From an uncultured Planctomycetia bacterium (lineage in GTDB: Bacteria > Omnitrophota > Gorgyraeia > 2-02-FULL-51-18), in assembly GCA_964612035.1 (NCBI GenBank), contig CAZTBX010000088.1, forward strand, positions 1 through 57,026: a DNA stretch of 57,026 nucleotides, read 5' to 3'. Position 1 is the first letter of the stretch. Every line of letters starts with the position of its first letter. The notes beneath the pieces are model-generated. The model was not told the origin of the DNA. It worked only from the letters and a program-made list of their open reading frames with translations, and ran no database searches. Made by a program: the position numbers and the translations under genes. This document shows positions 2,014 through 43,353 of the stretch, one piece after another.

Positions 2014-4035
2014 GTGAAAGCTTCTGCGGCGTTATTCTTAGATAGGGTTCGCATTATCCCCCTTATTTTTATTTTTTTTGTGACGGCTTTTTATTTTGGC
2101 GGCGCCCAGGGCATGTCTCTTTTTATTTCCCGGGCACTCATTTTGTGCCTGTTCTGCTTGTCTTCTTTTTCACCGTCTTTTTTGAGACTAAGCGCTTCCG
2201 AATGGCAGGTCATCCAAATGCCACTGGCTGGCTTTTTCCTGTTTTTGGTCTACCTGGTATTTCAAGCTTGGGGCGGGCATGCCGTTTTTTTGCATGGAAT
2301 AGGTTCCGTTTATGTCTATGAAACCACCCATTCCGCGATACAGCTTTTTGTTTACCTGATCTTTTTCTTGGTTTGTTTGGATTTTTTTTCTTCCTACAAG
2401 CGAATTCTCTTGGTGGTTCATTTTTTTGCGTTTCAGATCGTGTGCCTCATCTCCTGGGCCTACTACTTGAAGATCAATCATTTGGTCGGGGGGACCCATG
2501 CTCATCCTGACCCGCTACAATTTTTTGCCGGAAATTCGAACAACTTTGGCGGAGTCCTTGCTATGACGACGCCGTTTTTCCTGGGCGTGGTCGCTTACCA
2601 TCAACGGATGATGCGCAAGCCATTTTTGAATGACACCTTGATCGAAATGCTTTTCTATTTGGTTTTGACCGGAATAGTCTCTGCGGCGATCTTCCATTTT
2701 GAGGCAAGGACGGTTTTTATTTTGCAGCTCTTCGTCCTCGCTTGTTTCCTGCTATCCAACTTAAAAGATCGCATGATGGTTCAACTGCTTTTCGCGTGCG
2801 TGATCGTCTTTTTTTTGGTCTTGGGACTGAACAGCGTCAGCTTGCCAGCCAGTTTTCTGAAGGCCTATCAAAACCTGCCAAAAGAGCTAGGCCATCTTTT
2901 CGGCGTCAATTCTTCGGCATTGAGGATCCTATTCCAATACCCTTGGTTTGGGACAGGTTTGGGCACTTTTATCTGGGTGGCGCGAGGTTATCAAACCGTC
3001 AATCCTGAGATGCAGTTCTATACCAACAGCTACAATTCCTATCTGGACCTTCTTTCAGAGACAGGCCTTGTCGGTTTCACGCTTTTCTTTGTTCCGTTCA
3101 TTATTTTTGTGTTGGGCGTTTTTAAATATCCGCTGGATCCCGAGGCAGATGCTGAAAGTCACTCCTTAAGATCTTCATCTTTGCTCGCGATATTCATCGC
3201 TGTTTTGCTGGCGCTGTTCAATGACTATGTGAAGCTTCCGGCCATTGCTCTCCTTTTGACCCTGCACCTGGCTTTGGCGGTCAAGGCGATCGGCTTGGCA
3301 GAACATCCGCTCAAGCGAGTTATAGCCGTATCCGAATTCATCGGGCCACATCGCCGCACGGCGCTCGTATTGATCATACTGGTTTTCACAGCTGTTCTCT
3401 GGCACAGTGATCGCGAGCTGCGTTTTCGGATGCTTCTAAACCAAAGCGGTTCGCTGCTCAGCCACGGACTGAGCCTGGAAGCCGAAAAGCCGAGACTCAC
3501 AGAACTGGAAAAAGCGACGCATCTTATACCGAGCAACGCCGAATCATGGTCGCTTTTAGGGCGCGCCTATGCAGAAAAGGCTGCTATTTCCTCTGACGCG
3601 TACGCCCGACAAACGTTGACCCGTCGATCGATCGCCTCCTATGAGATGTCGACAAAGATCTTGCCGACATGGCCTGACACATGGTTTCATCTTGGAAGAA
3701 CGAAAATCGCCGCTGGGTTTATTGATGAAGGCCTCGAATGCTTGGAAAAAGGGGCAGGCCTGGCCCCACACAATCGCGACGCGCTTCTTTACGTGGTCGC
3801 GGCCTATCTTCAGGTGGCAGATGAAACTGGCTTGGCGGCCAAGAAAGGGTTTTATAAGCAAAGGGCGATCGACCTTATGAAAAAAACATCTCAATTTGAG
3901 AGACCTTTTTCTGCCCAAGATTTTGATTACATCAATAATTATGATTACGTGAACGGAAGGCCCCATACTCTCGACGAGCAAGACAAGAAGCGGATCGAGG
4001 CGATCTTGGCCCCGTCAAAGCGGCTTCTCCCATGA
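2014..4035 (+). CDS. O-antigen ligase/polymerase-like (Wzy_C family) multi-pass membrane protein fused to C-terminal TPR repeats
   Basis: 673 aa with a GTG start and more than 10 hydrophobic segments. Wzy_C-type motif NSYNSYLDLLSETGLVGF. The C-terminal ~200 aa are soluble and TPR-like (AESWSLLGRAYAEK..., PDTWFHLGRTKIAAG...). Confidence 0.75.
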   Translation: MKASAALFLDRVRIIPLIFIFFVTAFYFGGAQGMSLFISRALILCLFCLSSFSPSFLRLSASEWQVIQMPLAGFFLFLVYLVFQAWGGHAVFLHGIGSVYVYETTHSAIQLFVYLIFFLVCLDFFSSYKRILLVVHFFAFQIVCLISWAYYLKINHLVGGTHAHPDPLQFFAGNSNNFGGVLAMTTPFFLGVVAYHQRMMRKPFLNDTLIEMLFYLVLTGIVSAAIFHFEARTVFILQLFVLACFLLSNLKDRMMVQLLFACVIVFFLVLGLNSVSLPASFLKAYQNLPKELGHLFGVNSSALRILFQYPWFGTGLGTFIWVARGYQTVNPEMQFYTNSYNSYLDLLSETGLVGFTLFFVPFIIFVLGVFKYPLDPEADAESHSLRSSSLLAIFIAVLLALFNDYVKLPAIALLLTLHLALAVKAIGLAEHPLKRVIAVSEFIGPHRRTALVLIILVFTAVLWHSDRELRFRMLLNQSGSLLSHGLSLEAEKPRLTELEKATHLIPSNAESWSLLGRAYAEKAAISSDAYARQTLTRRSIASYEMSTKILPTWPDTWFHLGRTKIAAGFIDEGLECLEKGAGLAPHNRDALLYVVAAYLQVADETGLAAKKGFYKQRAIDLMKKTSQFERPFSAQDFDYINNYDYVNGRPHTLDEQDKKRIEAILAPSKRLLP

Positions 4036-4868
4036 ACCTGTTAGAATCCTACGCCATTCGGGTCCGACACAGCCGCTATCTGAAACACGCGCGGTTTTGG
4101 GATCTTGTTCGTCCGCTTTATAATTTTTTCCTCGCTTGTGTGACCCCAAAAGGACTAACGAGGGTTATCAATGGCAGTGATCGGATGTTGATCTCTTCGA
4201 AGTTCAGAGGTGTCAGTGAAAGCTATGAACCCCGTGTTTGGGAGTATTTGATGAGGCATGTTCGCCCCAACGATCGGATCGTGGATGTAGGGGCATTCAT
4301 CGGGTTGTATGCAGTGGCTCTAGGCAAGAGGTTGGGGCCGTCAGGACAAGTGTTCGCTTTTGAGCCCGAAGAGAATAACTATCAGGCTCTATGTGAACAC
4401 GTCCAATTGAATGGGCTAGCGGAAAAAGTCCGTCCGATCCGGGCGGCCGTGAGTTCGAGCTGCGGGCGCATCGCTTTTGTGTCCAAAAGCTGTGAATCTC
4501 ATGTATCCTTGTCCCCGGCGGCCAACGACTCCTTGACTAACATTGAATGCGTGACCCTCGATAGTGTGTTCCCCAAAGAGGCGCTGGATATCATGAAGAT
4601 CGACGTGGAAGGTTATGAAGAGAGTGTTCTAAAAGGCGCCTCCAAACTTTTGTCCGATGTTCAACGTCGACCTCGTCTCCTATGCGTAGAAGTGCATCCT
4701 TTTGCTTGGGCGGAAGCCGGGACGACCAGTGAATCGTTGATCTCTTTACTGGAAGGCGCCGGTTATTCGATCACAGACCTAGAGGGGAATATCGTGAAGA
4801 AGATCGACGCCTACAGCGAGATCTTCGCAAACCTTAAGGATGGCCAGGAGGCCAATGAAAAGATCTGA
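4032..4868 (+). CDS. FkbM-family SAM-dependent methyltransferase
   Basis: 278 aa. VDVGAFIGLYAVAL (SAM motif I), FAFEPEENNY and IMKIDVEGYEESVLKGA are the hallmark FkbM blocks. ATGA overlap with the upstream gene. Confidence 0.85.
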   Translation: MNLLESYAIRVRHSRYLKHARFWDLVRPLYNFFLACVTPKGLTRVINGSDRMLISSKFRGVSESYEPRVWEYLMRHVRPNDRIVDVGAFIGLYAVALGKRLGPSGQVFAFEPEENNYQALCEHVQLNGLAEKVRPIRAAVSSSCGRIAFVSKSCESHVSLSPAANDSLTNIECVTLDSVFPKEALDIMKIDVEGYEESVLKGASKLLSDVQRRPRLLCVEVHPFAWAEAGTTSESLISLLEGAGYSITDLEGNIVKKIDAYSEIFANLKDGQEANEKI

Positions 4869-5559
4869 CAGTAGCTCCAATTTCCTCGTTCTACGAACCA
4901 TCAAGAATTGGATGCTGCCCGCTGGCAAGCGGACGCGCGTGATCCCTTTTGGATTGTACCGAGGGATCCAATTCGACATTGATCTTCGCACACAAGCGCA
5001 ACTTTATTTTGGTCTCTGGGAAGCGGAGACCCATCGTGATCTCAAAAAGATCTCCAAGGGGGTTCGCACGGCCATTGATATTGGCGCCGCTTGGGGAGAG
5101 CAGACGCTTTATTTTTTGTCAAAAACCACCGCAAAAAAGATCTACGCGTTTGAGCCGGCGACCGAGTGTTGCGAAAGCATCCGCAAGAATACGGCGCTGA
5201 ACAAACTGGAGGGTTCGCGCCTCGAGATCATTCAAAAATATGTTGGGCCCAAAAATGATGCCAGGACGGTGACGCTCGACTCCTTGCTGGACCGAATAGA
5301 ATTTCCATGCGTTGTCAAAATGGATATTGATGGGGGCGAAGTGGATGCTTTGAAAGGGGCCGAGAAGCTCATGGAGGCCTCTGGCGTGAGGTGGTTGGTG
5401 GAAACACACACGTTTCGCCTGGAACGTGAGTGCATCGAACTTTTCAAGCGGCACGGCCATCGCACAAAGATCATTGATAACGCCTGGTGGAGAGTCGTTC
5501 TTCCGGAGCAGCGACCGGGAGAAATGAATCGGTGGCTCTTGGCCTTGAAACAGCCTTGA
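4840..5559 (+). CDS. FkbM-family SAM-dependent methyltransferase (tandem paralogue)
   Basis: 239 aa. AIDIGAAWGEQTLYF, YAFEPATECCE and VVKMDIDGGEVDALKGA. Overlaps the preceding FkbM gene by 29 nt; an alternative ATG lies at 4855. Confidence 0.8.
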   Translation: MARRPMKRSDSSSNFLVLRTIKNWMLPAGKRTRVIPFGLYRGIQFDIDLRTQAQLYFGLWEAETHRDLKKISKGVRTAIDIGAAWGEQTLYFLSKTTAKKIYAFEPATECCESIRKNTALNKLEGSRLEIIQKYVGPKNDARTVTLDSLLDRIEFPCVVKMDIDGGEVDALKGAEKLMEASGVRWLVETHTFRLERECIELFKRHGHRTKIIDNAWWRVVLPEQRPGEMNRWLLALKQP

Positions 5560-6796: not shown

Positions 6797-8152
6797 ATGC
6801 CGTTTCCGCACGGTGTTAAGCTTACCGTTGCAGGAATGGCTGGTTTTGTGATGTTCTGCTCATTTTGTCAGCCAGCGTTTTCAGTCAGTCTGGGCGAAAG
6901 GTCCGCTGGCTCAGACCAGTCATTCGTAGCGGGAAGTTCTTTGCGGGGTCTGACGGAAACGATTCATGGAGAGGGGCAGTTGCCGGCTTCAGACGAAGCC
7001 GAAGGGTCTGACTGGGTGTTGGGTAAGCGTCTGGAAATTTTGACGGCTTACGAGGGAAATGTGTTTGCCACACGCACGGATGTAAAGGACGACATTATCA
7101 CTACCTATGCACTCCCTCTTAGCTTATCCCGACGACGAACCAATGATCTCACTCAGCTGTTTTATACGGTCTCGGCGGTGCGTTATGTTGAAAACAGTGA
7201 ATTAAACCGGGTCAATCATAGCATGGGATCGAAGATTTCATATAAAACCGACAAATTCAATTTTATATTGGATGAAAAACTCACTCCTTCCACGGCCATT
7301 GCCGTCGGAGAGAAGACGGAGTTGAAGACCACAGGATCATCGCGGGTGACCACGACGATCAACAGCCTGTATTCGTCCATGTCCTACGCGCTTTCGACGA
7401 AGACGCTGGCGAGTTTTTCTTATGGGAATTATGTCTATTATTTCCCAAGGGCGAAGAACTCAGCCAGTGTTGCCAATTTCAGCACGCAGACGCATTCGTT
7501 TGGGCCGTCGCTCACATATCAGTGGACGCCGAAGACCCGGATATCGACAACCTACCGGAGCCAGGTCATTGATTATTTTGTCGGGACGGGCGCTTTTGAT
7601 TCGGTTACCGGTGAGTGGCTTGTGGGCCTGGAGCGGAAGCTGACCGACAAGACACGACTCACGCTAGAGCTGGGTTTAATGGATCGAAACTATCGGCACA
7701 TACCGACACCCAAAAAGCTCGGGTACAATGCCAAGGGAGCCGTTTCTAGCAAACTGAGCTCTAAACTTTTGTTGACCTTGGCGGCGGCGCGCAACACATT
7801 AGTCGAGAATTTGAACACTGAAACGTCTCCGACACTGATCCAAACGACAGACGATGTGGGGCTTAAGCTGACCTGGATGGCCACCAAGCATCTGAGCGCT
7901 GATCTTGGCCTGAGCGCAGGCCTGATCTCCCGCGAAGGATATATCACGCTGGCGGATCCGGACAATCCGAGCCTGACATTTACGCGCGAGGCGAAAGATG
8001 ACTTCTATCAACTGGAGTGCGCCGGTTATTGGACGCCAAAGTCTTTTGTCACGTTTGCGCTCGCTTATTATTATTTCAATAAGAATTCTTCGTTCAAGAA
8101 TTCTGAATACGACAATCACCGCGCCACTATCTCAATGGAATATCAATTTTGA
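6797..8152 (+). CDS. Predicted outer-membrane beta-barrel protein, first gene of the polysaccharide export module
   Basis: 451 aa. Hydrophobic N-terminal signal-like segment ending FSVSLG. Alternating-polarity strands rich in T/S/Y throughout. The C-terminal ...ISMEYQF ends in an aromatic Phe, typical of BAM substrates. Confidence 0.6.
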   Translation: MPFPHGVKLTVAGMAGFVMFCSFCQPAFSVSLGERSAGSDQSFVAGSSLRGLTETIHGEGQLPASDEAEGSDWVLGKRLEILTAYEGNVFATRTDVKDDIITTYALPLSLSRRRTNDLTQLFYTVSAVRYVENSELNRVNHSMGSKISYKTDKFNFILDEKLTPSTAIAVGEKTELKTTGSSRVTTTINSLYSSMSYALSTKTLASFSYGNYVYYFPRAKNSASVANFSTQTHSFGPSLTYQWTPKTRISTTYRSQVIDYFVGTGAFDSVTGEWLVGLERKLTDKTRLTLELGLMDRNYRHIPTPKKLGYNAKGAVSSKLSSKLLLTLAAARNTLVENLNTETSPTLIQTTDDVGLKLTWMATKHLSADLGLSAGLISREGYITLADPDNPSLTFTREAKDDFYQLECAGYWTPKSFVTFALAYYYFNKNSSFKNSEYDNHRATISMEYQF

Positions 8153-30797: not shown

Positions 30798-31139
30798 ATG
30801 GAATCCAATCAGAGGCCGTGGGGTCATTACGATATCCTTTTAAAGGAGGCTTCCTGCCAGGTGAAGCGCATCGAGGTGCTGCCGGATCTGCGTTTTAGCC
30901 TGCAAAAACATGCGCGCCGCTCCGAGCGCTGGATCGTTCTCTCGGGCACGGGCATTGCCACCGTGGGGAAAAAAGAGACGACCGTTTCTCAAGGTTCTTA
31001 TGTGGAAGTGCCTCTCGGAGAGCTTCACCGCATGCACAATACCGGCCGTGAGCCGCTTGTTTTTATCGAAGTGCAAATCGGCGATTATCTCGAGGAAGAC
31101 GACATCGTGCGGGTGGAGGATGATTTTAACCGCCGATGA
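30798..31139 (+). CDS. Small stand-alone cupin (mannose-6-phosphate isomerase type II C-terminal-domain-like)
   Basis: 113 aa from the ATG at 30798. RPWGHYDIL...RIEVLPDLRFSLQKHARRSERWIVLSG...EVPLGELHRMHNTG. The upstream extension to 30585 overlaps the WecA-like gene and is rejected. Confidence 0.7.
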   Translation: MESNQRPWGHYDILLKEASCQVKRIEVLPDLRFSLQKHARRSERWIVLSGTGIATVGKKETTVSQGSYVEVPLGELHRMHNTGREPLVFIEVQIGDYLEEDDIVRVEDDFNRR

Positions 31140-34395: not shown

Positions 34396-34968
34396 ATGGT
34401 CTTAACCCCCTCAATGATGAAACCCCTCGGCATGCAGGCACCTGATTTTTCATTACCGGATGTCGTGTCGAAAAAAAAGATCTCGCTCGCTGCGTTCTCG
34501 GGGAAAAAGGCGCTTCTCGTCATGTTCATCTGCCGGCACTGTCCGTATGTGCAGCACGTGAAAGAGGAATTGGCGCGTCTCGGGCGCGATCACGAGGCAA
34601 AAGGCCTCGGCATCGTCGCCATCAGCTCGAACGACGCCGACAATTATCCGGACGACAAGCCCGAAAGCCTGAAGGCCATGGCCAAAGAACTCTCGTTCAA
34701 TTTCCCGTTCTGCTATGACGAAACACAGCAGACGGCACTCGATTATGGGGCTGCCTGCACGCCGGATTTTTTCCTCTTCGACTCAAAGCAAAGACTTTTT
34801 TATCGCGGCCAGCTAGACGACAGCCGGCCCGGTAACGGCATTCCCGTCACCGGCAAAGACCTGCGTGAAGCCATTGGCTTGGCACTGGCCGGCAAAGAGC
34901 CTCCCAAAAAACAAAAACCGAGTATTGGTTGCAACATCAAATGGAAACCCGGCAAAGGACCCGTGTGA
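34396..34968 (+). CDS. Thioredoxin-fold redoxin (AhpC/TSA-like thiol-disulfide oxidoreductase)
   Basis: 190 aa. C-x2-C context FICRHCPYVQHV, with PDFFLFD and YRGQLDDSRP blocks typical of this redoxin family. Confidence 0.8.
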   Translation: MVLTPSMMKPLGMQAPDFSLPDVVSKKKISLAAFSGKKALLVMFICRHCPYVQHVKEELARLGRDHEAKGLGIVAISSNDADNYPDDKPESLKAMAKELSFNFPFCYDETQQTALDYGAACTPDFFLFDSKQRLFYRGQLDDSRPGNGIPVTGKDLREAIGLALAGKEPPKKQKPSIGCNIKWKPGKGPV

Positions 34969-36005
34969 CCTCGCAGTGTGAACTTATTCAAAAGTTGGTA
35001 TGCCCTCGCACCCACTCCTCTTTGAAGGTTAACGAGGGTATTTTGGTCTCTGATTCGGGAGCAAAATACTTCATGGCGGACGATACGCCGGTGATGTTAT
35101 TAGACGATATTGAACAGAGTATGGGCCTAGTAGAAAACTCACTCAGAAGAGTTCGAGGGGAGAATGGGGACGTTCGCGCGCCTGAGCTTTATTTAGAATC
35201 CCTTGGGCTGGCCGAAGAGGAAAAGCAGGGGATCGTTGATCTGTACAGATCGGGGAATTGCAAGATCGACCCCGTTGTGTCATTTCTTGTGGGCGCGACC
35301 AATGGCATTGGATACAAACATTTAGTTGGTAAATTATGCGAGTACCCAATTCCAGAATTGCCGCTGCCTCCTTCGAATGGGGCTTCTTTTTTAGATATAG
35401 GCTGTAATTGGGGAAGATGGTGTATCTCCGCCAAACGGTTAGGCTACGCGCCTATCGGGATCGACCCTTCCCTGGGTGCGATCATGGCCGCCAAGAGAGT
35501 CGCTAAGCAATTAGAGTTACCCCTGGAGTATGTCGTTGGCGATGCACGGCACTTGCCATTCAAGGAAAATAGTTTTGATGTCGTGTTTTCTTACAGTGTG
35601 TTGCAACATTTTAGCACCCAAGATGCCGTGAGAGTGATGTCTGAAATAGGCAGGGTTTTAAAACCCAATGGCCATTCTGTGATCCAAATGCCCAATAAAT
35701 GGGGAGCGCGTTGTTTGCAGCATCAGATCAGAAGGGGTTTTAGGGAGGCCAAGGATTTTGAAGTCAGGTATTGGAGTATCGGGGATTTAAGGGAGGAGTT
35801 CGTAAAGGCAATTGGAAAGACAAGTGTGTTTGTTGATTGTTTTTTGGGATTAGGATTGCAAAAGTCTGATATTGCCTTGATGCCAGCCTATAAAAGACCA
35901 TTGATCCATTTTTCAGAATTACTCAAACGAATGAGCAAGAAGCTCTCCTTTTTAATTGATGTGGCTGACAGTGTATTCGTCGAATCTTGGAAACCTGCGA
36001 AATGA
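34929..36005 (+). CDS. Class I SAM-dependent methyltransferase with an N-terminal Trm112-like zinc-ribbon segment
   Basis: 358 aa (alternative ATG at 34941). LIQKLVCPRTHSSLKV...TPVMLLDD is Trm112-like. SAM motif I FLDIGCNWGRW. Motif FDVVFSYSVLQHF. Confidence 0.8.
   Translation: MQHQMETRQRTRVTSQCELIQKLVCPRTHSSLKVNEGILVSDSGAKYFMADDTPVMLLDDIEQSMGLVENSLRRVRGENGDVRAPELYLESLGLAEEEKQGIVDLYRSGNCKIDPVVSFLVGATNGIGYKHLVGKLCEYPIPELPLPPSNGASFLDIGCNWGRWCISAKRLGYAPIGIDPSLGAIMAAKRVAKQLELPLEYVVGDARHLPFKENSFDVVFSYSVLQHFSTQDAVRVMSEIGRVLKPNGHSVIQMPNKWGARCLQHQIRRGFREAKDFEVRYWSIGDLREEFVKAIGKTSVFVDCFLGLGLQKSDIALMPAYKRPLIHFSELLKRMSKKLSFLIDVADSVFVESWKPAK
34936..34960 (+). repeat. Junction repeat, copy 1 (native redoxin 3' end)
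   Basis: atcaaatggaaacccggcaaaggac. Near-identical strings occur at 38787-38810 and 40377-40400. Confidence 0.85.
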
Positions 36006-36853
36006 ATATTTTTAAAAAAATCGAACACCACGTAGAGGTCTCAGGTTTCTGGGAAGCCGTCTTAATGTTTTTGAAGCGTTTTCCATTTATTCGTCACTCG
36101 GTAACGTTTGCCAACCTTGTTGTGCGTAAACGCACTCATCACAACACCAATAATTCTCTTTTTCCTGATGTCGATGTTCGTCGGGTTCTTTTAGACGTTA
36201 AAAAAAACGCACTCTATCTAGGCATGGATCTTTCGGGTGAGCTAGTTGAAGAAATTCAAAGATTTGCCGAAGAATCCGAATGCGTGGTCGTCGCTGGAGG
36301 AAAACGGCACTCTTATCGATACAAAGAACGCATCAATACGGAACGTCTTATCGGATATCGATTGCCATTGGCGCGTTATGCTGATTTAGCCGCTTGTCCA
36401 GCTATCCGAAGGATTCAAGAAGACCCCAAGCTCCTTGAAATTTCCACTCGTTATCTTCTTGGAGATCCGCATCGAGTCAATGCAATAATGTGGTGGAGCT
36501 TTCCGATAGAGGCAACCGACGAGGAAAGATTGGCTGCCAACCAAACGGTTCGTTTTCATTACGATCTGGAAAGTTTCCGTTTTATTTATTTTAATTTTTA
36601 TCTGACGGATGTTGATCTAGATTCTGGCCCGCATGTTATTGTGCTGGGCAGTCATCGTAAAAAAAAGTTGTCTCATTTTTTCTCATCCGTCAATAGAAGC
36701 GATGAAGATATTCAGCGTTTTTATGGCAGATCAAAAATTATTGAAATCACTGGAAAATCTGGAATGGGATTTGTTGAAGATTCATACTGTTATCATAAAG
36801 CGTGTATTCCTCTAAAAAAATCTCGTTTGATGTTGCAAATCCGGGTTACTTAA
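35987..36853 (+). CDS. Probable Fe(II)/2-oxoglutarate dioxygenase (PhyH-like)
   Basis: 288 aa (alternative ATG at 36002). H-x-D in VRFHYDLE, GPHVIVLGSHRKK, a distal His in SYCYHKA and Arg in RLMLQIR fit the PhyH facial-triad layout. Assignment rests on motifs only. Confidence 0.55.
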   Translation: METCEMNIFKKIEHHVEVSGFWEAVLMFLKRFPFIRHSVTFANLVVRKRTHHNTNNSLFPDVDVRRVLLDVKKNALYLGMDLSGELVEEIQRFAEESECVVVAGGKRHSYRYKERINTERLIGYRLPLARYADLAACPAIRRIQEDPKLLEISTRYLLGDPHRVNAIMWWSFPIEATDEERLAANQTVRFHYDLESFRFIYFNFYLTDVDLDSGPHVIVLGSHRKKKLSHFFSSVNRSDEDIQRFYGRSKIIEITGKSGMGFVEDSYCYHKACIPLKKSRLMLQIRVT

Positions 36854-37831
36854 ATGGAAAGCCGATCCTTAGGGAAAACAGGTCTTCGGTCGTCTGTCAT
36901 TGGCTTCGGGTGCGCGCCAATAGCTTCACGAGCGGGCACCGCCTCTTCCCAGCGAGCGCTGGAATTAGCATTGAATAGAGGGGTCACTTTTTTTGATACG
37001 GCAGATTTCTATGGTCAGGGAGATAGTGAGAGACTTTTGGGAAAGACGCTGTCTAGATACCGCCGAGATGACATGATCATCGCAACGAAAGCCGGGATGA
37101 AGTATTCGGAGCGGCTGAAAACGTTTTTCTTTTTAAAACCTCTAGTCCGCCCGCTTGTAAGACGTTTTCGACCCGTCCGGCAGGTTGTTACCAATGCTTT
37201 TAATTCACAAGTCACAACCGGGCATTTCAGTGAAGATCATCTTTCGCGGGCAGTGGAAGGGAGTCTTAAGCGGCTGCGAACCGAATGTGTTGATTTTTTC
37301 TTACTTCATAGCCCTTCCATGAAAGACTTGCAGGGGGGCTATGTTTTCGAGATGCTTGAACGTCTGAGGCGCGCGGGTAAAATTAAATATTACGGCATCT
37401 CATCGGATGTCCGGACGGCTCTTGAAGCCTTAAAAATTGGGGGCGAAGGGTTTGCTTGCCTGGAAGTGCCTATCAATTTTTATGCTTCGGAAGCGCTGAG
37501 CAAGCTTGTTCCGATGGCGAGCGCTCAAGGTGTTGCGTTGATAGCGCGGGAGCCTTTTGCGAATGGCCGGATCTTCTCCCCATCCCCGGTTAATTTCTCA
37601 TTTGTAAATAATTGTGGTTTAACCATTGCGCAAGCAGCTATTCGTTTTTTACTGTCAATCGCGGGTATTTCCGTTGTCCTTCCGAGCATGGTGAATATTC
37701 GGCACATCGAAGAAAATATACAAGCGCTTTCCGGCCTGGAATTGCCGGCAGATGCACGCTCCAAAATTTTTGAATTGATGAAAGAAAATTCTAAAACAAG
37801 CTCGTATTCTGATCCCCGAAAGGATTTATAA
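36854..37831 (+). CDS. Aldo/keto reductase
   Basis: 325 aa. LGKTGLRSSVIGFGC, GVTFFDTADFYGQGDSERLLGK and VDFFLLHSP are classic AKR blocks. Confidence 0.9.
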   Translation: MESRSLGKTGLRSSVIGFGCAPIASRAGTASSQRALELALNRGVTFFDTADFYGQGDSERLLGKTLSRYRRDDMIIATKAGMKYSERLKTFFFLKPLVRPLVRRFRPVRQVVTNAFNSQVTTGHFSEDHLSRAVEGSLKRLRTECVDFFLLHSPSMKDLQGGYVFEMLERLRRAGKIKYYGISSDVRTALEALKIGGEGFACLEVPINFYASEALSKLVPMASAQGVALIAREPFANGRIFSPSPVNFSFVNNCGLTIAQAAIRFLLSIAGISVVLPSMVNIRHIEENIQALSGLELPADARSKIFELMKENSKTSSYSDPRKDL

Positions 37832-37932
37832 TGGTAACGGTGGAACACATCCAAGAAAACGCGACGGTGATCTCAGCGCGGGACCTGGACCCTGCTGAGA
37901 TGTTCCGCCATGGCTCAGATGGACGCTCATGA
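37831..37932 (+). CDS. Candidate 33-codon micro-ORF filling the gap between the AKR and FkbM genes
   Basis: MVTVEHIQENATVISARDLDPAEMFRHGSDGRS. Its ATG shares one base with the AKR stop (TAATG), and its TGA overlaps the FkbM ATG (ATGA). There is no other support. Confidence 0.25.
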   Translation: MVTVEHIQENATVISARDLDPAEMFRHGSDGRS

Positions 37933-38777
37933 GAAAATTTTTCCAACTTATTCCGCTTGAAAATCAGTTACTCGTTTCATTCCGGCGCTTGTTGCGTCAT
38001 ACCGGTTTCTTGAATTTTATTGGCCGCAGGCTGTCACGGGATAGATCGACAGTGTCGGAAGCGAAGGCCAAAGACCCGCTTGGCCCAACTCATCTGGTAT
38101 GCCTGTCCCAAGAACTATCGTTGACGATGCATGGTTTTGACTCCTCCCAACTGCGTCTGAAAATAAGCCAGGATCGACACATATTGGAAGCAATCTACGC
38201 TTCCTTGATGGAAGGGGACGTGTTCTGGGACATCGGCGCAAACATCGGGGTTTATACGGTCGTCATGGCGCTTGCCTCGGCCGGGAAGAACGTCTCGGTG
38301 GTGGCGTTCGAGCCGGAGGCTGCATCCTACAACGTGCTGCGGCGGAACCTCGACCTGAACCGTATAACGCGCGCGAAGGCCGTTCCGCTCGCTTTGGGCG
38401 AACTGAAGGAAGATAAGACGCTTTATTTCTCGAAGGACCCCGCTGCCGGTACTCATTCTTTACTTACCGCACGGCGGCACCAAATGGGGGATTCGCAGAC
38501 GATCCGGGTCGAGAGAGGGGACTCTTTAATCGAAAAATCAGGTTTGCCGCCACCCAACGTCATTAAAATCGACACGGAAGGTACCGAATATGAAGTCTTC
38601 GAGGGGCTGGGGGATGCTTTGAGCTTGCCCTCATGCCACACCGTTGTTTGCGAGGTACATTTTTCGATGCTGGATTCCCGCACACCACAAAAAATCGTGA
38701 ATTTTCTCAAGGCCCGGGGATTCAAAACAAGGAGATGGCTCGACTTGTCCCATGTCTACCTAAGTAAAAAATCTTGA
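37929..38777 (+). CDS. FkbM-family SAM-dependent methyltransferase (third copy in the window)
   Basis: 282 aa. FWDIGANIGVYTVVMA, VAFEPEAASYNVLRRNL and VIKIDTEGTEYEVFEGL. Confidence 0.85.
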   Translation: MRKFFQLIPLENQLLVSFRRLLRHTGFLNFIGRRLSRDRSTVSEAKAKDPLGPTHLVCLSQELSLTMHGFDSSQLRLKISQDRHILEAIYASLMEGDVFWDIGANIGVYTVVMALASAGKNVSVVAFEPEAASYNVLRRNLDLNRITRAKAVPLALGELKEDKTLYFSKDPAAGTHSLLTARRHQMGDSQTIRVERGDSLIEKSGLPPPNVIKIDTEGTEYEVFEGLGDALSLPSCHTVVCEVHFSMLDSRTPQKIVNFLKARGFKTRRWLDLSHVYLSKKS

Positions 38778-38786
38778 GTAAAAATT

Positions 38787-38810
38787 ATCAATGGAAACCC
38801 AGCAAAGGAC
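38787..38810 (+). repeat. Junction repeat, copy 2, fused to the miaB 5' fragment
   Basis: atcaatggaaacccagcaaaggac. Matches 34936-34960 apart from a 1-nt deletion and one substitution. Confidence 0.8.
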
Positions 38811-39081
38811 GCGCTTGAAAAAAGTCTTTTTACAAACTTTTGGCTGTCAAATGAATGAAAGAGACAGCGAAGCTGTGCTCGGCCTGCTCATCGAGAAAGG
38901 TTTTGAGCCCGTGTCCTCGCCCGAAGAAAGCGACCTGCTTCTCTACAACACCTGCAGTGTGCGCAACCACGCCGAGCAGAAAGTGTTCGGGCGTATGGGG
39001 CATTTCAAGCATCTCAAAGCCGCCAGGCCCGGGCACGGAGCCTCTATTTCCGATCCTCTTCGTGTTTCTATTATGTATTGA
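38791..39081 (+). pseudogene. miaB: Truncated 5' fragment of a diverged miaB allele
   Basis: The ORF encodes ...FLQTFGCQMNERDSEAVLGLLIEKGFEPVSSPEESDLLLYNTCSVRNHAEQKVFGRMGHFKHLKAARPG, matching intact MiaB (42004..) residues ~16-80 with two substitutions. Homology ends near 39038, before the radical-SAM domain. Confidence 0.85.
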
Positions 39082-39153
39082 AATCAACGAATAGATAAAT
39101 TTCGTTTCATAATTGAAACAGAAATAGGCCGCTTTGCTATTGTGATAATTTAA

Positions 39154-39182
39154 TTGACTACTTTATTTTATCCTGATATATC
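39154..39182 (+). promoter_or_regulatory. Sigma70-type promoter candidate TTGACT-17 nt-TATATC immediately upstream of the ATPase gene
   Basis: -35 at 39154-39159 and -10 at 39177-39182, within an AT-rich tract (39046-39188). The annotated ATG at 39189 lies only 6 nt after the -10, which implies a leaderless or very short-leader mRNA or a downstream start. Confidence 0.45.
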
Positions 39183-39188
39183 AATGTT

Positions 39189-40349
39189 ATGATTCATAGA
39201 CGATTAGAGCTTCCAACGCGGCCCAAAGAGAGTTTTTTTCTGTGGGGTCCTCGCCAGAGCGGAAAAAGCATGCTTCTCAAATCCGTCTATTCCGACGCGA
39301 TTTGGTATGACCTTTTGAAAACGGATCTGTATGTCCGCTTGATCGAAAAACCGAGCCTTCTTCGAGAAGAACTTCTACACGCCCAGTCCGAGAAAAGGGG
39401 CAGCCTTATTATTATCGACGAAATCCAGAAAATCCCTGTTTTGCTGGATGAAGTGCATTGGCTCATCGAGAATACAGGTTTTGTATTCGGCTTATGCGGT
39501 TCAAGCGCCAGAAAGGTCCGAAAAGGCCACGCCAATCTCTTGGGGGGTAGGGCTGTCCGGCACGAGCTCTTCGGGTTTGTCTCCAAAGAACTCGGGGGCG
39601 AATTCGACCTCGTGCGCATGATCAATCATGGGTATCTTCCCAGGCACTATTTAAGCCAGTCTTATGAAAAACTTGTCCGTTCCTACGTGAATGACTATTT
39701 GAAGGAGGAAATTGCAGCGGAGGCGCTTGTGAGGAATCTACCGGCATTTTCGCATTTCCTAAGTGCCGCCGCGCTCTCCGACACGGAGCTTGTCAATTAT
39801 TCCACGATCGCCAGGGAATGCGGCGTTTCATCGCCTGCCGTCAAAGGGTACTTTCAAATTCTCATTGATACTCTACTGGCCCGGTTTCTTGAAGCTTACC
39901 GTAAGCGTCCCAAGCGTCGGGTGATCGGTACGCCAAAGTTTTATTTTTCGGATGTGGGGGTTGTCAATTATCTAGCCAAACGGGGGAAGATCGTGCCCGG
40001 CTCGGAACTTTTCGGAAAAGCCTTTGAGAACTGGGTGTTTCATGAACTCTCGGCTCACCGCGCCTACAGCGGCCTGGATTATGATTTGAGCTACTGGCGG
40101 CTTACCACCGGCATCGAGGTGGATTTTATCATGGGGGACATGGAAATCGCGATCGAAGCGAAAGCAAGCCCTAAAATCACTTCCGACCACCTTCGAAACT
40201 TGCGTGAAATCATAAAGGATCACCCCAAACTAAAAAGAAGGATCGCCGTGTCTCTTGAAGAGCGCCCAAGAAAAACAGAAGATGGCATTGAGATTTTACC
40301 GTATTCCATGTTTGTGGAAAATCTTTGGTCAGACGCGTGGATGCGATAA
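39189..40349 (+). CDS. AAA-family ATPase fused to a PD-(D/E)xK nuclease-like C-terminal domain (AAA_14 + DUF4143 architecture)
   Basis: 386 aa. Walker A GPRQSGKS, Walker B LIIIDEIQ. The C-terminal GIEVDFIMGDMEIAIEAKAS gives the D...E-x-K signature. Confidence 0.85.
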   Translation: MIHRRLELPTRPKESFFLWGPRQSGKSMLLKSVYSDAIWYDLLKTDLYVRLIEKPSLLREELLHAQSEKRGSLIIIDEIQKIPVLLDEVHWLIENTGFVFGLCGSSARKVRKGHANLLGGRAVRHELFGFVSKELGGEFDLVRMINHGYLPRHYLSQSYEKLVRSYVNDYLKEEIAAEALVRNLPAFSHFLSAAALSDTELVNYSTIARECGVSSPAVKGYFQILIDTLLARFLEAYRKRPKRRVIGTPKFYFSDVGVVNYLAKRGKIVPGSELFGKAFENWVFHELSAHRAYSGLDYDLSYWRLTTGIEVDFIMGDMEIAIEAKASPKITSDHLRNLREIIKDHPKLKRRIAVSLEERPRKTEDGIEILPYSMFVENLWSDAWMR

Positions 40350-40355
40350 AAGGAG

Positions 40356-40403
40356 AAACCGAGCATCGGCTGCAATATCAAATGGAAACCGGGTAAAGGA
40401 TAG
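40356..40403 (+). pseudogene. Orphan 3'-terminal fragment of a diverged redoxin allele (junction repeat copy 3 at 40377-40400)
   Basis: Reads KPSIGCNIKWKPGKG-stop, identical in protein to residues of the native redoxin end (34915-34959). All six nucleotide differences are third-position and synonymous. Confidence 0.75.
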
Positions 40404-40409
40404 GCTCTG

Positions 40410-41150
40410 ATGGCACTGCGCGAAGATTTTGAAGGTTTTGGGCTCTGGCTGTTCCGTTGGCGCAGTTACCTGCCTATCCTGACGATAGTGCTGGTGCTCA
40501 TGGCGCTGCGCCATTTCCATTATCCGGCCGGCATGCATTGGTTGGACGAGATCTGGGAATTCCTTTGCTTCGGCATTTCTCTGACGGGGCTTGGCGTGCG
40601 GGTGCTCACCGTAGGCTCCGCGCCGAAAGGGACCTCGGGCCGTAACGTGAGAAGCCAGGTCGCGGACAGTCTGAACGAATCGGGCATGTACTCGATCATG
40701 CGCCACCCTTTGTATTTCGGCAATTTCTTGAGCGGTCTGGGGGTGGCGCTGTTTCCGCGGTCGTGGTGGATGGGCTTCTTGTATCTGCTGGTCTTTTGGT
40801 TGTACTACGAGCGTATCATGTTCGCGGAAGAGGAATTCCTTCGCCGAAAATTCGGGGAGGCCTATTTGGCCTGGGCGGAACACACACCGGCCTTTTTCCC
40901 GAATTTTACTCAATGGACGCCGCCGCAACTTTCTTTTTCGATCCGCTGGTCCATCAAAAGAGAATACGCGAGCGTATTTCTTTTGATCGTCGTTTTCACG
41001 CTCATGGAAGTGGCCGGAGACGCCTTTGCCACGCATCGACTGATCTTTGACGGGATCTGGGTGGCCATCTTCGCGACCTCGGCGGTGAGTTACGCCTTGA
41101 TCCGATTCCTGAGCAAGAAGACCTCTCTCTTGTCCGTCAAGGGCCGCTAG
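40410..41150 (+). CDS. Isoprenylcysteine carboxyl methyltransferase (ICMT/PEMT-like) family membrane methyltransferase
   Basis: 246 aa with several TM segments. LNESGMYSIMRHPLYFGNFL and EEEFLRRKFGEAYLAW match the ICMT-family C-terminal signature. Confidence 0.75.
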   Translation: MALREDFEGFGLWLFRWRSYLPILTIVLVLMALRHFHYPAGMHWLDEIWEFLCFGISLTGLGVRVLTVGSAPKGTSGRNVRSQVADSLNESGMYSIMRHPLYFGNFLSGLGVALFPRSWWMGFLYLLVFWLYYERIMFAEEEFLRRKFGEAYLAWAEHTPAFFPNFTQWTPPQLSFSIRWSIKREYASVFLLIVVFTLMEVAGDAFATHRLIFDGIWVAIFATSAVSYALIRFLSKKTSLLSVKGR

Positions 41151-41189
41151 CGGAAGGTTTACAAATGGCGTTATCGGAGATAAATTAAG

Positions 41190-41999
41190 ATGAGCTTATC
41201 GCCCATCAGACGGATGCTGAACAAAGTGCCAGAGGTCACCCTATACTTCTGGATCATCAAGGTCCTGTGTACCACGGTCGGTGAGACGGCGGCTGACTAT
41301 CTGATCGAACATTTTTTCGGACTGACGGGAACGACACTGATCATGGGCGGACTGCTCGTTGTCATTTTGTTCTTTCAGTTCAAGTGGAAAAAGTACTCCC
41401 CATCCATCTATTGGCTCGCGGTCGTTCTCCTCAGCATCGTCGGTACCTTGATCACGGATAACCTGACAGACCACCTCAGAGTTCCTCTGGAGACGACCAC
41501 TCTTGCATTCTCCAGCGCGCTTGTCCTGACCTTCGCGGTGTGGTACGCGGTTGAGAAGACGCTGTCCGTTCATGCCATTGTCACGACTCGCCGCGAGGCG
41601 TTCTACTGGCTGGCTATCCTTTTCACGTTCGCATTGGGCACCGCTGCGGGTGACCTCACTGCGGAAAAGTTCGGTCTGGGGTATTTGACGTCGTTGTTCA
41701 TATTCGCCGGCCTCATTGCGATCGTGACGATCGTGCATTATGCGATGAAGGGGATCTTGGCTGCGGAACAGAAGCGTCAGTCGAGAAACGCGGTATTGGT
41801 TTTCTGGCTGGTCTATATTTTGACTCGGCCGCTGGGCGCATCTATCGGAGACTACCTTTCGCAGGCCCGCGCTGACGGGGGTTTGGGCTTGGGGACGACC
41901 GTGACAAGCGTGATCTTTCTCGTCACGATCTTAGTGCTGGTCGTCTATCTTACGCTTACGAAAAAGGACGAGATCCCTCCCGAAACCGCGAGGTTTTAA
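41190..41999 (+). CDS. Multi-pass membrane protein of unknown function (COG4705-like)
   Basis: 269 aa. N-terminal NKVPEVTLYFWIIKVLCTTVGETAADYL and a second GTAAGDL repeat resemble the uncharacterised membrane-anchored protein family. Eight hydrophobic segments. Confidence 0.65.
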   Translation: MSLSPIRRMLNKVPEVTLYFWIIKVLCTTVGETAADYLIEHFFGLTGTTLIMGGLLVVILFFQFKWKKYSPSIYWLAVVLLSIVGTLITDNLTDHLRVPLETTTLAFSSALVLTFAVWYAVEKTLSVHAIVTTRREAFYWLAILFTFALGTAAGDLTAEKFGLGYLTSLFIFAGLIAIVTIVHYAMKGILAAEQKRQSRNAVLVFWLVYILTRPLGASIGDYLSQARADGGLGLGTTVTSVIFLVTILVLVVYLTLTKKDEIPPETARF

Positions 42000-42003
42000 G
42001 ATA

Positions 42004-43353
42004 ATGCAATCATCGATCGGTCAAGGTATCGCAAAGAAAAAGCTGTTCCTCCAGACTTTCGGGTGCCAGATGAACGAGCGTGACAGCGAAGCCGTGCTCG
42101 GCCTGCTCATCGAGAAAGGTTTTGAGTCAGTGTCTTCGCCCGAAGAAAGCGACCTGCTTCTTTACAACACCTGCAGTGTGCGCGACCACGCCGAGCAGAA
42201 GGTATTTGGACGCATGGGCCATTTCAAGCATCTCAAGGCCGCCAGACCCGGCATGGTCATCGGCATCATCGGCTGTATGGCTCAGGAGCACGGCAAGGAT
42301 TTTTTCAGGCGTAATCCCGAGATCGACCTTGTGTGCGGTCCGGGGAATCTGAGCCAGATCCCCGACCTTGTCGAAGAGATCCGGCAAAAACGTTCGCCAC
42401 GATTGGCTGTGGATAGGCTGAACGAGGAGTACGGTCTCGACGGCATCCGCTACCGCTCGGGCGGCCTGAAAGCGCTGGTCACCATCATGACGGGCTGTGA
42501 TCACCGCTGCACCTATTGCATTGTCCCGTACACGCGCGGGGACGAACGTTCGCGGCCCTCGCAAAGCGTTCTCGAAGAAATGAAAGACCTCGAGAGCCGC
42601 GGTTTCAAGGACGTGATGCTGCTCGGGCAGAACGTGAACTCGTATGGAAAAGGCCTCGAGGAAAATATCGATTTTGCAGGACTGCTGGAAAAGATCCAAG
42701 ATCAGGCGCCGGGCATTTCGAGGCTTCGCTTCATCACCAGTCACCCCAAGGATGCTCACGCACGCCTTTTCAAGGCCATGAAGTCGCTACCCATGGTGTG
42801 CGGGCACCTGCATTTGCCGGTGCAGTCGGGCTCAAACCGCGTCCTGAAGCGCATGAAGCGCGAACACACGCGTGAATGGTACCTCGAGCAGATCGCGGAA
42901 TACAGGAGGCTTGTGCCCGACGGCTCGCTCACCACCGATTTCATTGTCGGTTTTCCCGGTGAAACCCAGACGGATTTCGAGGACACGCTGGACCTGGCGC
43001 GTCGTGCAGAGTTTGATAGCGCTTTCACCTTTATTTATTCGCCGAGACCTGGTACGCCCGCACTGCGTCTTGAGGACGACGTCCCGCAGAACGAAAAAGA
43101 GCGCCGGCATCAGACGCTTTTAGAACTGCAAAAGGCCATGAGCCTCCGCAAGAATCAGGAGCTTATCGGGCGCACGATGGAAGTGCTGTTCGAGGGACGC
43201 ACGAAACGCGGCGACAACCGCTACGCCGGCAGAACGCGCGAGTATAAGCGTGTCGTGGTCTCTTCGAATGAAGACCTCGTCGGGCGCTTCCGCAGTGCCC
43301 GGATCGCGGGGGCGGCTGATGAAACCCTGCTGGGGGAGCTCGTCGGCCCGTGA
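42004..43353 (+). CDS. miaB: tRNA-i6A37 methylthiotransferase
   Basis: 449 aa. UPF0004 N-domain FLQTFGCQMNERDSE, radical-SAM CDHRCTYCIVP, C-terminal TRAM domain. Confidence 0.95.
   Translation: MQSSIGQGIAKKKLFLQTFGCQMNERDSEAVLGLLIEKGFESVSSPEESDLLLYNTCSVRDHAEQKVFGRMGHFKHLKAARPGMVIGIIGCMAQEHGKDFFRRNPEIDLVCGPGNLSQIPDLVEEIRQKRSPRLAVDRLNEEYGLDGIRYRSGGLKALVTIMTGCDHRCTYCIVPYTRGDERSRPSQSVLEEMKDLESRGFKDVMLLGQNVNSYGKGLEENIDFAGLLEKIQDQAPGISRLRFITSHPKDAHARLFKAMKSLPMVCGHLHLPVQSGSNRVLKRMKREHTREWYLEQIAEYRRLVPDGSLTTDFIVGFPGETQTDFEDTLDLARRAEFDSAFTFIYSPRPGTPALRLEDDVPQNEKERRHQTLLELQKAMSLRKNQELIGRTMEVLFEGRTKRGDNRYAGRTREYKRVVVSSNEDLVGRFRSARIAGAADETLLGELVGP

Follow-up and report, generated by a model that had tools for sequence, protein, structure and literature searches.

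What allows a short interval between two housekeeping genes to take up different genes in one lineage after another if no enzyme for moving them is encoded there? The question is raised by the interval between a redoxin gene and miaB in contig CAZTBX010000088.1 (assembly GCA_964612035.1), deposited under the name of an uncultured Planctomycetia bacterium and placed by GTDB in the Omnitrophota. The stretch of DNA analyzed, hereafter the window, is the whole contig of 57,026 nucleotides (nt); the interval with its two flanking genes lies at 34396–43353, where a co-oriented, closely spaced run of genes leads from redoxin to miaB on the + strand (as do all window features described below). Between the intact flanking genes, truncated copies of both are interspersed with seven other genes. 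The evidence outlined below marks a hotspot of gene turnover which is centered on the 5′ end of miaB, lacks an element-encoded recombinase, and on balance may have been fed by DNA of related organisms through homology-facilitated illegitimate recombination (HFIR).

Truncated copies of redoxin and miaB

The left core flank is the intact redoxin gene (34396–34968) encoding a protein of the AhpC/TSA family of 190 amino acids (aa; Pfam Redoxin and AhpC-TSA, E ~1e-19) and syntenic with its counterparts in relatives. The right core flank is intact miaB (42004–43353; Pfam UPF0004, Radical_SAM, and TRAM), a tRNA-modification gene whose product has its best database relatives among the MiaB proteins of Omnitrophota (76% identity), hence the source genome belongs to the Omnitrophota but has no close relative among those sequenced. 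The first-pass annotation of this DNA had described partial copies of the redoxin/miaB junction between these genes; according to repeat search and pairwise alignment, the similarity holds for all three repeats. Thus, the recurrence of the last ~50 nt of redoxin is borne out, with slightly corrected coordinates, by the alignment of 34907–34959 (in A1) with 40348–40400 (in A2), where 44 of 53 nt are identical (83%). The copy at 40348 reads KEKPSIGCNIKWKPGKG, then stop. All six differences inside KPSIGCNIKWKPGKG, which is directly followed by the stop, are synonymous third positions, as had been claimed, and three further differences (one synonymous, plus Q to E) are found in the 8 nt just upstream. 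The copy of a 24-nt core at 38787 is also real, with a 1-nt indel relative to the redoxin frame: 34940–34968 and 38790–38818 share 25 of 29 nt without gaps (86%), and the match becomes 34936–34964 vs. 38787–38814 if a 1-nt deletion is allowed. Finally, the 5′ fragment of miaB (38817–39032, in B1) aligns with 42036–42251 of the intact gene over 216 nt with 30 differences (86–87% identity). The longest exact match is ~33 nt between B1 and miaB and ~14 nt between A1 and A2. Chance does not account for any of the three repeat pairs: searches with the 24-nt core and with a degenerate miaB-start pattern gave two matches each in the window and none in 100 shuffles, the third copy escaping these scans solely through its indel.

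A1 (34907–34968), the 3′ end of the intact redoxin gene, is at the same time miaB fossil no. 1, as follows from the repeats, the alignments, and the open reading frame (ORF) 34929–36005. In the +1 frame, the sequence ATG GAA ACC... at 34941 reads METRQRTRV, and its counterpart at 38791, METQQRTRL, continues directly into KKVFLQTFGCQMNERD (KKVFLQTFGC). Hence, the copy at 38787 (A3, 38787–38818), identified by the repeats and by this reading, is better described as a miaB start region incidentally overlapping a redoxin end, of which a trace of 4–5 nt with a 1-nt deletion in the redoxin frame is left. In the version of the junction represented here, termed X, miaB would have begun within the 28 terminal nt of redoxin, so that both genes overlapped (METRQRTRVKKVFLQTFGC); the methyltransferase gene of the first cassette now starts from fossil no. 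1 (X-type, 27 nt, METRQRTRV). The second fossil of miaB, B1 (38791–39033, 81 codons; Pfam UPF0004, E = 1e-21), lies within an ORF extending to 39081. As had been noticed before, it breaks into AT-rich DNA after 39033, a spacer of 155 nt recognizable by its base composition (39034–39188, 31% GC) located 5′ of an ATPase gene.

The remaining copy, A2 (40348–40403), comprises the last 17–18 codons and the stop of a second redoxin allele, as judged by the repeats and by codon comparison. It sits hard against the stop codon of the ATPase gene; its own stop follows directly after KPGKG, and the next gene begins 6 nt later. One of its changes, GGC to GGT, is synonymous for redoxin and creates TAA in the overlapping miaB frame, hence the source of A2 was not overlapped by miaB. 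The corresponding version of the junction, Y, appears to have consisted of redoxin, a methyltransferase gene, a DUF347 gene, and a miaB gene whose product has another N-terminal sequence (MQSSIGQGIAKKK...). Since both redoxin alleles end in KPGKG, unlike those of relatives, which end in KPGNEP, the sources of X and Y were probably close kin.

Taken together, the sequence points to a composite of the two allelic versions joined around the ATPase cassette. The X block would extend from the upstream genes through redoxin, the stop of which is overlapped by the miaB start, to nt 243 of miaB; a low-GC cassette of four genes would have been inserted 27 nt into the X-type miaB, bringing along a miaB start and ~16 conserved codons. 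The Y block would begin 53 nt before the end of the second redoxin allele and lead via a lipid-type methyltransferase gene and the DUF347 gene into the intact miaB. The DUF4143 ATPase cassette would occupy the X/Y joint, the two blocks overlapping in homologous coordinates. For annotation, this means that the 96-codon ORF 38791–39081 and the 17-codon redoxin tail 40350–40403 are fossils, not genes.

The pattern of substitutions in B1 bears on the origin of the fossils. The first-pass annotation was right about the presence of the miaB fragment and the largely synonymous nature of its divergence; the number of amino-acid differences is three (V/L, P/S, N/D) instead of two. Of 26 changed codons, 23 are synonymous, the rate of non-synonymous substitution (dN) being 0.03 and that of synonymous substitution (dS) 0.6–0.95 depending on the method (dN/dS 0.03–0.09). 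About 75% of random substitutions in the B1 sequence would alter the protein, and finding three or fewer non-synonymous codons among 26 has a probability of 0.0015 when no more than half of the divergence is assumed to be neutral. A duplication in place followed by neutral decay, which had been regarded as the less likely origin, is therefore rejected. Along with the dN/dS values, this supports the earlier proposal that the fossils derive from diverged functional alleles; they are displaced ends of genes that still worked until shortly before each event.

Moreover, B1 is a mosaic. Its first 48 nt (KKVFLQTFGCQMNERD) differ from the resident miaB at 15 positions and have a GC content at third codon positions (GC3) of 0.25 vs. 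0.81 in the resident gene; they stem from a functional allele of low GC content. Over the following 168 nt, there are likewise 15 differences (91% identity, dS 0.45), with a GC3 of 0.75, the same as in the resident. The crossover lies near miaB codon 25. The low-GC part resembles the first cassette in composition (GC3 0.35–0.60) and, over its initial 38 nt, shares 95% identity with the start of intact miaB in two related contigs (L163/L164). These two features indicate that the first cassette came together with the miaB start and first codons of a lower-GC lineage.

The interval in related genomes and its cargo

The interval was compared with Omnitrophota contigs whose miaB is 72–76% identical to that of the window. 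The conserved gene order in these relatives is sua5-purC-(hypothetical)-redoxin-[variable]-miaB-SPOR-miaA-hflX-hrcA-grpE-dnaK; redoxin as the left flank and miaB-SPOR-miaA as the right flank are kept in L082/83, L084, L162, L165, and L168–170. The gap between redoxin and miaB ranges from 0.3 to 7 kb, and its content is different in each lineage: a GIY-YIG gene in L082/83; genes for a CDGSH protein, an IS200-like Y1_Tnp, and a nucleotidyltransferase in L084; a hypothetical protein and a DUF4143 ATPase in L162; a lipase, a methyltransferase, RibD_C, and one more gene in L165; and a YhdP-like protein in L168–170. The repeated receipt of DNA at this junction, proposed from the window alone, is thus seen across relatives. 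The sole gene shared with another slot is the methyltransferase gene of the first cassette, with a homolog at L165:7422–8429 (67% identity, different neighbors). The redoxin–miaB interval is a gene-turnover hotspot common to a clade of Omnitrophota.

The relatives also tell about the ancestral state, in which, according to the first-pass annotation, redoxin was directly followed by miaB. Redoxin is indeed located upstream of miaB in the relatives and, in L082/83, its stop overlaps a fossil miaB start (MSKKVFLQTLG) as ATGA, direct evidence that redoxin originally abutted miaB. In the same contigs, the fossil start is succeeded by the GIY-YIG gene and this by a new start, MKNKKVFLQTFGCQMN; an insertion within the first miaB codons was made good by a synonymously differing new start. 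Fossils of the miaB 5′ end free of the adapter repeat described below are present in four relatives and measure 33 nt in L082/83, 33 and 22 nt in L084, and ~15 nt in L163, in the latter just after an HNH gene carrying homing-endonuclease-associated repeats. Endonuclease-type genes located directly upstream of miaB are those of an 86-aa GIY-YIG protein (L082:3185–3447, and L083) and of the HNH protein (L163:2424–3167). An exact-protein look-up of the window redoxin returned no other contig, and a scan of species-representative genomes with this protein yielded only distant matches (≤72%), one of them partly syntenic (L048).

To look for mobility machinery, all ORFs at 34396–43353 and 10 flank ORFs were compared with Pfam, NCBIfam, and PADLOC. 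These scans confirm the earlier remark that integrase and transposase are absent, both from the region and from 10 kb on each side. Neither tRNA genes nor terminal inverted repeats nor Rfam families were found in the region or its flanks, and comparison of the region with plasmids gave no meaningful matches. Among the slots of relatives, the exception is L084 with its IS200-like Y1_Tnp. The test for an integron, or for a cluster of attC sites lacking an integrase, was negative as well, with no integrase and no repeated site between the window cassettes. The first cassette is bounded by repeats of 29–33 nt (25/29 identical), and the ATPase unit and the two-gene unit downstream of it have no matching pair of bounding repeats.

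At the same time, a conserved repeat of ~130 nt, referred to as the adapter, occurs in relatives. Its first 33 nt represent a miaB start of 11 codons (MTKKLFLQTFG), the remainder reads in the +1 frame ...CSET..LS..VFQALAEGLQVAL, and the repeat often ends 4 nt into the start of the next gene. Copies were recorded in L085 (4215–4383, 5276–5420), L048 (7549–7686, 9689–9749), L165 (8439–8553), L161 (3823–3910, 5133–5189), L205 (5180–5327), L199 (136–288), and L202 (3653–3748, 4238–4322, 5083–5199). The three copies in L202 after rlmN and the one in L205 after guaA lie away from miaB, each with a different cassette. A diverged form without the miaB-like part is present in a high-GC organism, one copy (L085:4247–4270) carries a 24-nt in-frame insertion, a palindrome (GTCCTGAGCGAAGTCGAAGGA) resembling repetitive extragenic palindromic elements, and the methyltransferase homolog in L165 is preceded by a degenerate adapter half (~7340–7379) and followed by a full adapter.

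Because the repeat also occurs away from miaB, it is understood as a repeat that acquired its 5′ portion from miaB. The KKxFLQTFG copies in L085, L048, L161, and L165, which always have the conserved segment of ~100 nt behind them, resemble at first sight independent miaB fossils with one exact end point in common, as site-specific insertion would produce; they were for the same reason dropped as such and are left out of the fossil evidence. The rest of the adapter is not derived from miaB (alignment vs. shuffles), has no match to Rfam or known RNA and no conserved hairpin, and, in a search of 5.8 billion sequences, corresponds to the C-terminus of no full-length protein. The adapter gave no plasmid match; among viral contigs, its 5′ pattern was absent, and a second, looser pattern had matches at the chance level only. 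The occurrence of the adapter before unrelated cassettes at miaB, rlmN, and guaA would point to an integron-like system with an as yet unknown recombinase or endonuclease. The miaB start region would then serve Omnitrophota and co-occurring groundwater bacteria as a dedicated site at which promoterless cassettes dock and are expressed, an idea we consider unlikely; if it is true, the same process would have produced the window fossils, which would be young and lack the adapter. The window itself is devoid of the adapter repeat.

The cargo of the window slot is diverse. The first cassette had been described as five ORFs; there are four. The first (34941–36005) encodes a methyltransferase dependent on S-adenosylmethionine (Pfam Methyltransf_11 and _25; GC3 0.51). 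The second (35987–36853) encodes a 288-aa protein of unknown function, weakly PhyH-like (PF05721, E = 0.013, under the family cut-off), with the lowest GC3 of the region, 0.35. They are followed by the genes of an aldo-keto reductase (36854–37831; PF00248, E = 4e-40; GC3 0.46) and an FkbM-family methyltransferase (37929–38777; PF05050, TIGR01444). The GC3 of the first cassette, 0.35–0.60, compares with 0.65–0.83 in core genes. Downstream of the AT-rich spacer, the gene at 39189–40349 encodes an AAA_14/DUF4143 ATPase, a single-gene candidate defense protein (Pfam; PADLOC PDC-S01, E = 7e-48); candidate defense genes of this kind are the usual cargo of hotspots. The promoter reported upstream of it did not withstand the consensus scan; by eye, only the near-consensus TTGACT-17-TATATC is seen there, and promoter and terminator scans remained at the chance level. 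The L162 slot also contains a DUF4143/AAA_14 ATPase gene (L162:6286–7470), whose product shares only 23% identity with that of the window; both genes are preceded by an AT-rich region of their own, and both stop codons immediately adjoin the next feature.

The two genes behind A2 encode a membrane methyltransferase of the PEMT/ICMT type (40410–41150; Pfam; LmtA-like, TIGR04571 with 248 bits, below its cut-off; GC3 0.73) and a DUF347 membrane protein (41190–41999; PF03988, E = 7e-58; GC3 0.71), both native-like in composition (GC3 0.71–0.73). The contig with the closest homolog of this methyltransferase also encodes a 269-aa Radical_SAM and TRAM product without the N-terminal UPF0004 domain (L206:11080–11889), which may represent another 5′-truncated miaB-like gene. 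In a distant bacterium (L086), whose miaB is 47% identical and which has no redoxin gene there, a PEMT/ICMT homolog (37% identical) is situated directly upstream of miaB (2463–3248 and 3564–4946), so the methyltransferase–miaB neighborhood may be older than the Omnitrophota clade or coincidental. Elsewhere in the window, positions 1–30800 are occupied by a polysaccharide-type cluster (glycosyltransferases, carbamoyltransferase, epimerase; GC3 0.52–0.63), which may be a second foreign or fast-turnover region; the housekeeping genes at 31100–57026 have a clearly higher GC3 (0.65–0.83).

Routes of entry

The route we favor, with modest confidence, is that DNA from related genomes would be integrated by housekeeping recombination. 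One end of the incoming fragment would pair by homology in a flanking core gene, either miaB or redoxin together with the genes upstream, and the other end would join illegitimately or via very short homology; a single crossover of a circularized fragment would give an equivalent result. Where the non-homologous join falls inside a flanking gene, a truncated copy of the end of this gene would remain. As redoxin and miaB overlapped, an insertion keeping both of them intact must duplicate the overlap. HFIR or single crossover is favored over a site-specific model because the lengths of the fossils (15 to 243 nt) and their end points vary. At this locus, the mosaic structure of B1 and the allelic nature of the fossils speak for recombination in both miaB and redoxin.

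Several observations weigh against this reading. No relative with >90% identity was found to carry a pure X or a pure Y haplotype, from which the order and direction of the events could be read. The Y arrangement (redoxin-methyltransferase-DUF347-miaB) was not found elsewhere via homologs of the methyltransferase, the closest of which (67% identity) has an unrelated context. Furthermore, insertions recur within the first 10–80 codons of miaB in several lineages, and endonuclease genes adjoin miaB in two relatives; these two facts suggest that a targeted process could apply instead.

Such a process could be the work of site-specific integrative elements targeting the miaB 5′ end or the redoxin/miaB overlap and supplying a replacement gene end, with the recombinase acting in trans or lost. 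In this case, the fossil arrays would arise by serial integration, as the arrays of staphylococcal cassette chromosome (SCC) composite islands do. The first cassette would fit this picture, being flanked by direct repeats of 29–33 nt and providing at its right end a new miaB start with recoded codons, as would the GIY-YIG insertion of L082/83, which has a like form (old start, insert, new start with KKVFLQTFG). The adapter repeat, beginning with a miaB start and preceding cassettes at several loci of relatives, points in the same direction, as do the dusA islands, whose insertion exchanges the 5′ end of a tRNA-modification gene while a remnant stays behind (PMC4482086). Still, no integrase or recombinase is encoded in the region, within 10 kb on each side, or in the slots of relatives (the Y1_Tnp of L084 aside). 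The fossils of 15, 22, 27, 33, and 243 nt have varying end points and repeats without a common core, A2 and B1 do not bracket one element in the manner of attL and attR, and the adapter is absent from the window. Integrative elements are, therefore, an improbable explanation in our estimate.

Less probable again is the action of homing-type endonucleases cutting the 5′ coding sequence of miaB, with repair from related DNA co-converting the neighboring genes and sometimes duplicating the target, and with the recoded synonymous positions of the surviving copy conferring immunity to cutting. The GIY-YIG gene of L082/83 and the HNH gene of L163 are each located directly upstream of miaB beside a miaB 5′ fossil, and the first 48 nt of B1, saturated with synonymous differences, closely match the HNH-linked allele of L163. 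However, a lower-GC donor explains the recoding equally well, the window slot contains no endonuclease gene, and the GIY-YIG protein of only 86 aa has no DNA-binding domain.

An assembly artifact, in which the slot versions of co-existing strains were strung serially on one contig, is considered very unlikely. The succession of an X block and a Y block overlapping in homologous coordinates does resemble false haplotypic duplication, and the window corresponds to an entire contig (57,026 nt) assembled from a metagenome. Yet the joints B1/spacer and ATPase/A2 share no misjoin-prone sequence, the blocks are separated by a 1.3-kb ATPase cassette, the exact matches are short (at most ~33 nt for B1/miaB and ~14 nt for A1/A2), and analogous fossils are present in independent assemblies from other samples. 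As for a tandem duplication of the junction in place with decay of the redundant copies and later insertions, the A-B1 ... A2-B order is as expected from it, but it is hardly credible given the scarcity of non-synonymous codons (3/26 vs. 75% expected neutrally; P = 0.0015 at half-neutral divergence), the foreign composition of the 5′ part of B1, and the derivation of A2 from an allele not overlapped by miaB.

Comparison with known systems

With its well-preserved fossils, the locus adds a new example to a known kind of gene-turnover hotspot and is not a new system. Replacement of the end of a target gene is familiar from phage 21 and e14, which do so in icd. The present locus also resembles the dusA-specific islands, where insertion into the 5′ end of a tRNA-modification gene likewise yields a new, synonymously diverged end and an old remnant (PMC4482086). 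Elements of the dusA/icd type, however, have a dedicated integrase and an att core of ~21 bp, neither of which was found in the present case.

Another parallel is provided by the displacement arrays at rhs, contact-dependent inhibition (CDI), and type VI secretion effector-immunity loci, which have been attributed to HFIR (PMC5361080). Like these arrays, the redoxin–miaB interval shows serial acquisitions anchored in a conserved gene and ordered orphan fragments shifted aside: intact miaB is preceded by two of its own fossils (27 and 243 nt), and intact redoxin is followed by a redoxin fossil of 53 nt. At the rhs, CDI, and type VI secretion loci, however, what is displaced are variable 3′ ends of toxin genes together with immunity genes, and they come to lie downstream of the anchor; here, it is the ends of housekeeping genes that were moved aside, upstream of miaB, and the cargo consists of unrelated metabolic, envelope, and candidate defense genes.

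The “minimal mobile elements” of Neisseria are a comparable case free of mobile elements. More generally, mobile elements are missing from many hotspots of horizontal gene transfer, whose flanking core genes show elevated recombination (Oliveira et al. 2017, PMC5635113). The interval described here resembles them in its constant core flanks, lineage-specific content, lack of integrase and transposase, and signs of recombination in the flanks. Double homologous crossover normally leaves no fossils; in contrast, truncated allelic copies of both flanking genes are retained in the window, which means that at least some of the events were one-sided. Such hotspots are common, yet gene acquisition in them is mostly inferred statistically, and this locus keeps a readable fossil record of it, with the allelic, constrained truncated ends indicating the import of whole junction segments from related species. 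It also singles out the 5′ end of miaB as a breakpoint used repeatedly in Omnitrophota. Unlike the known hotspots free of mobile elements, the present one belongs to uncultivated Omnitrophota and is flanked by genes that originally overlapped, so the phenomenon operates as well in a phylum known almost only from metagenomes.

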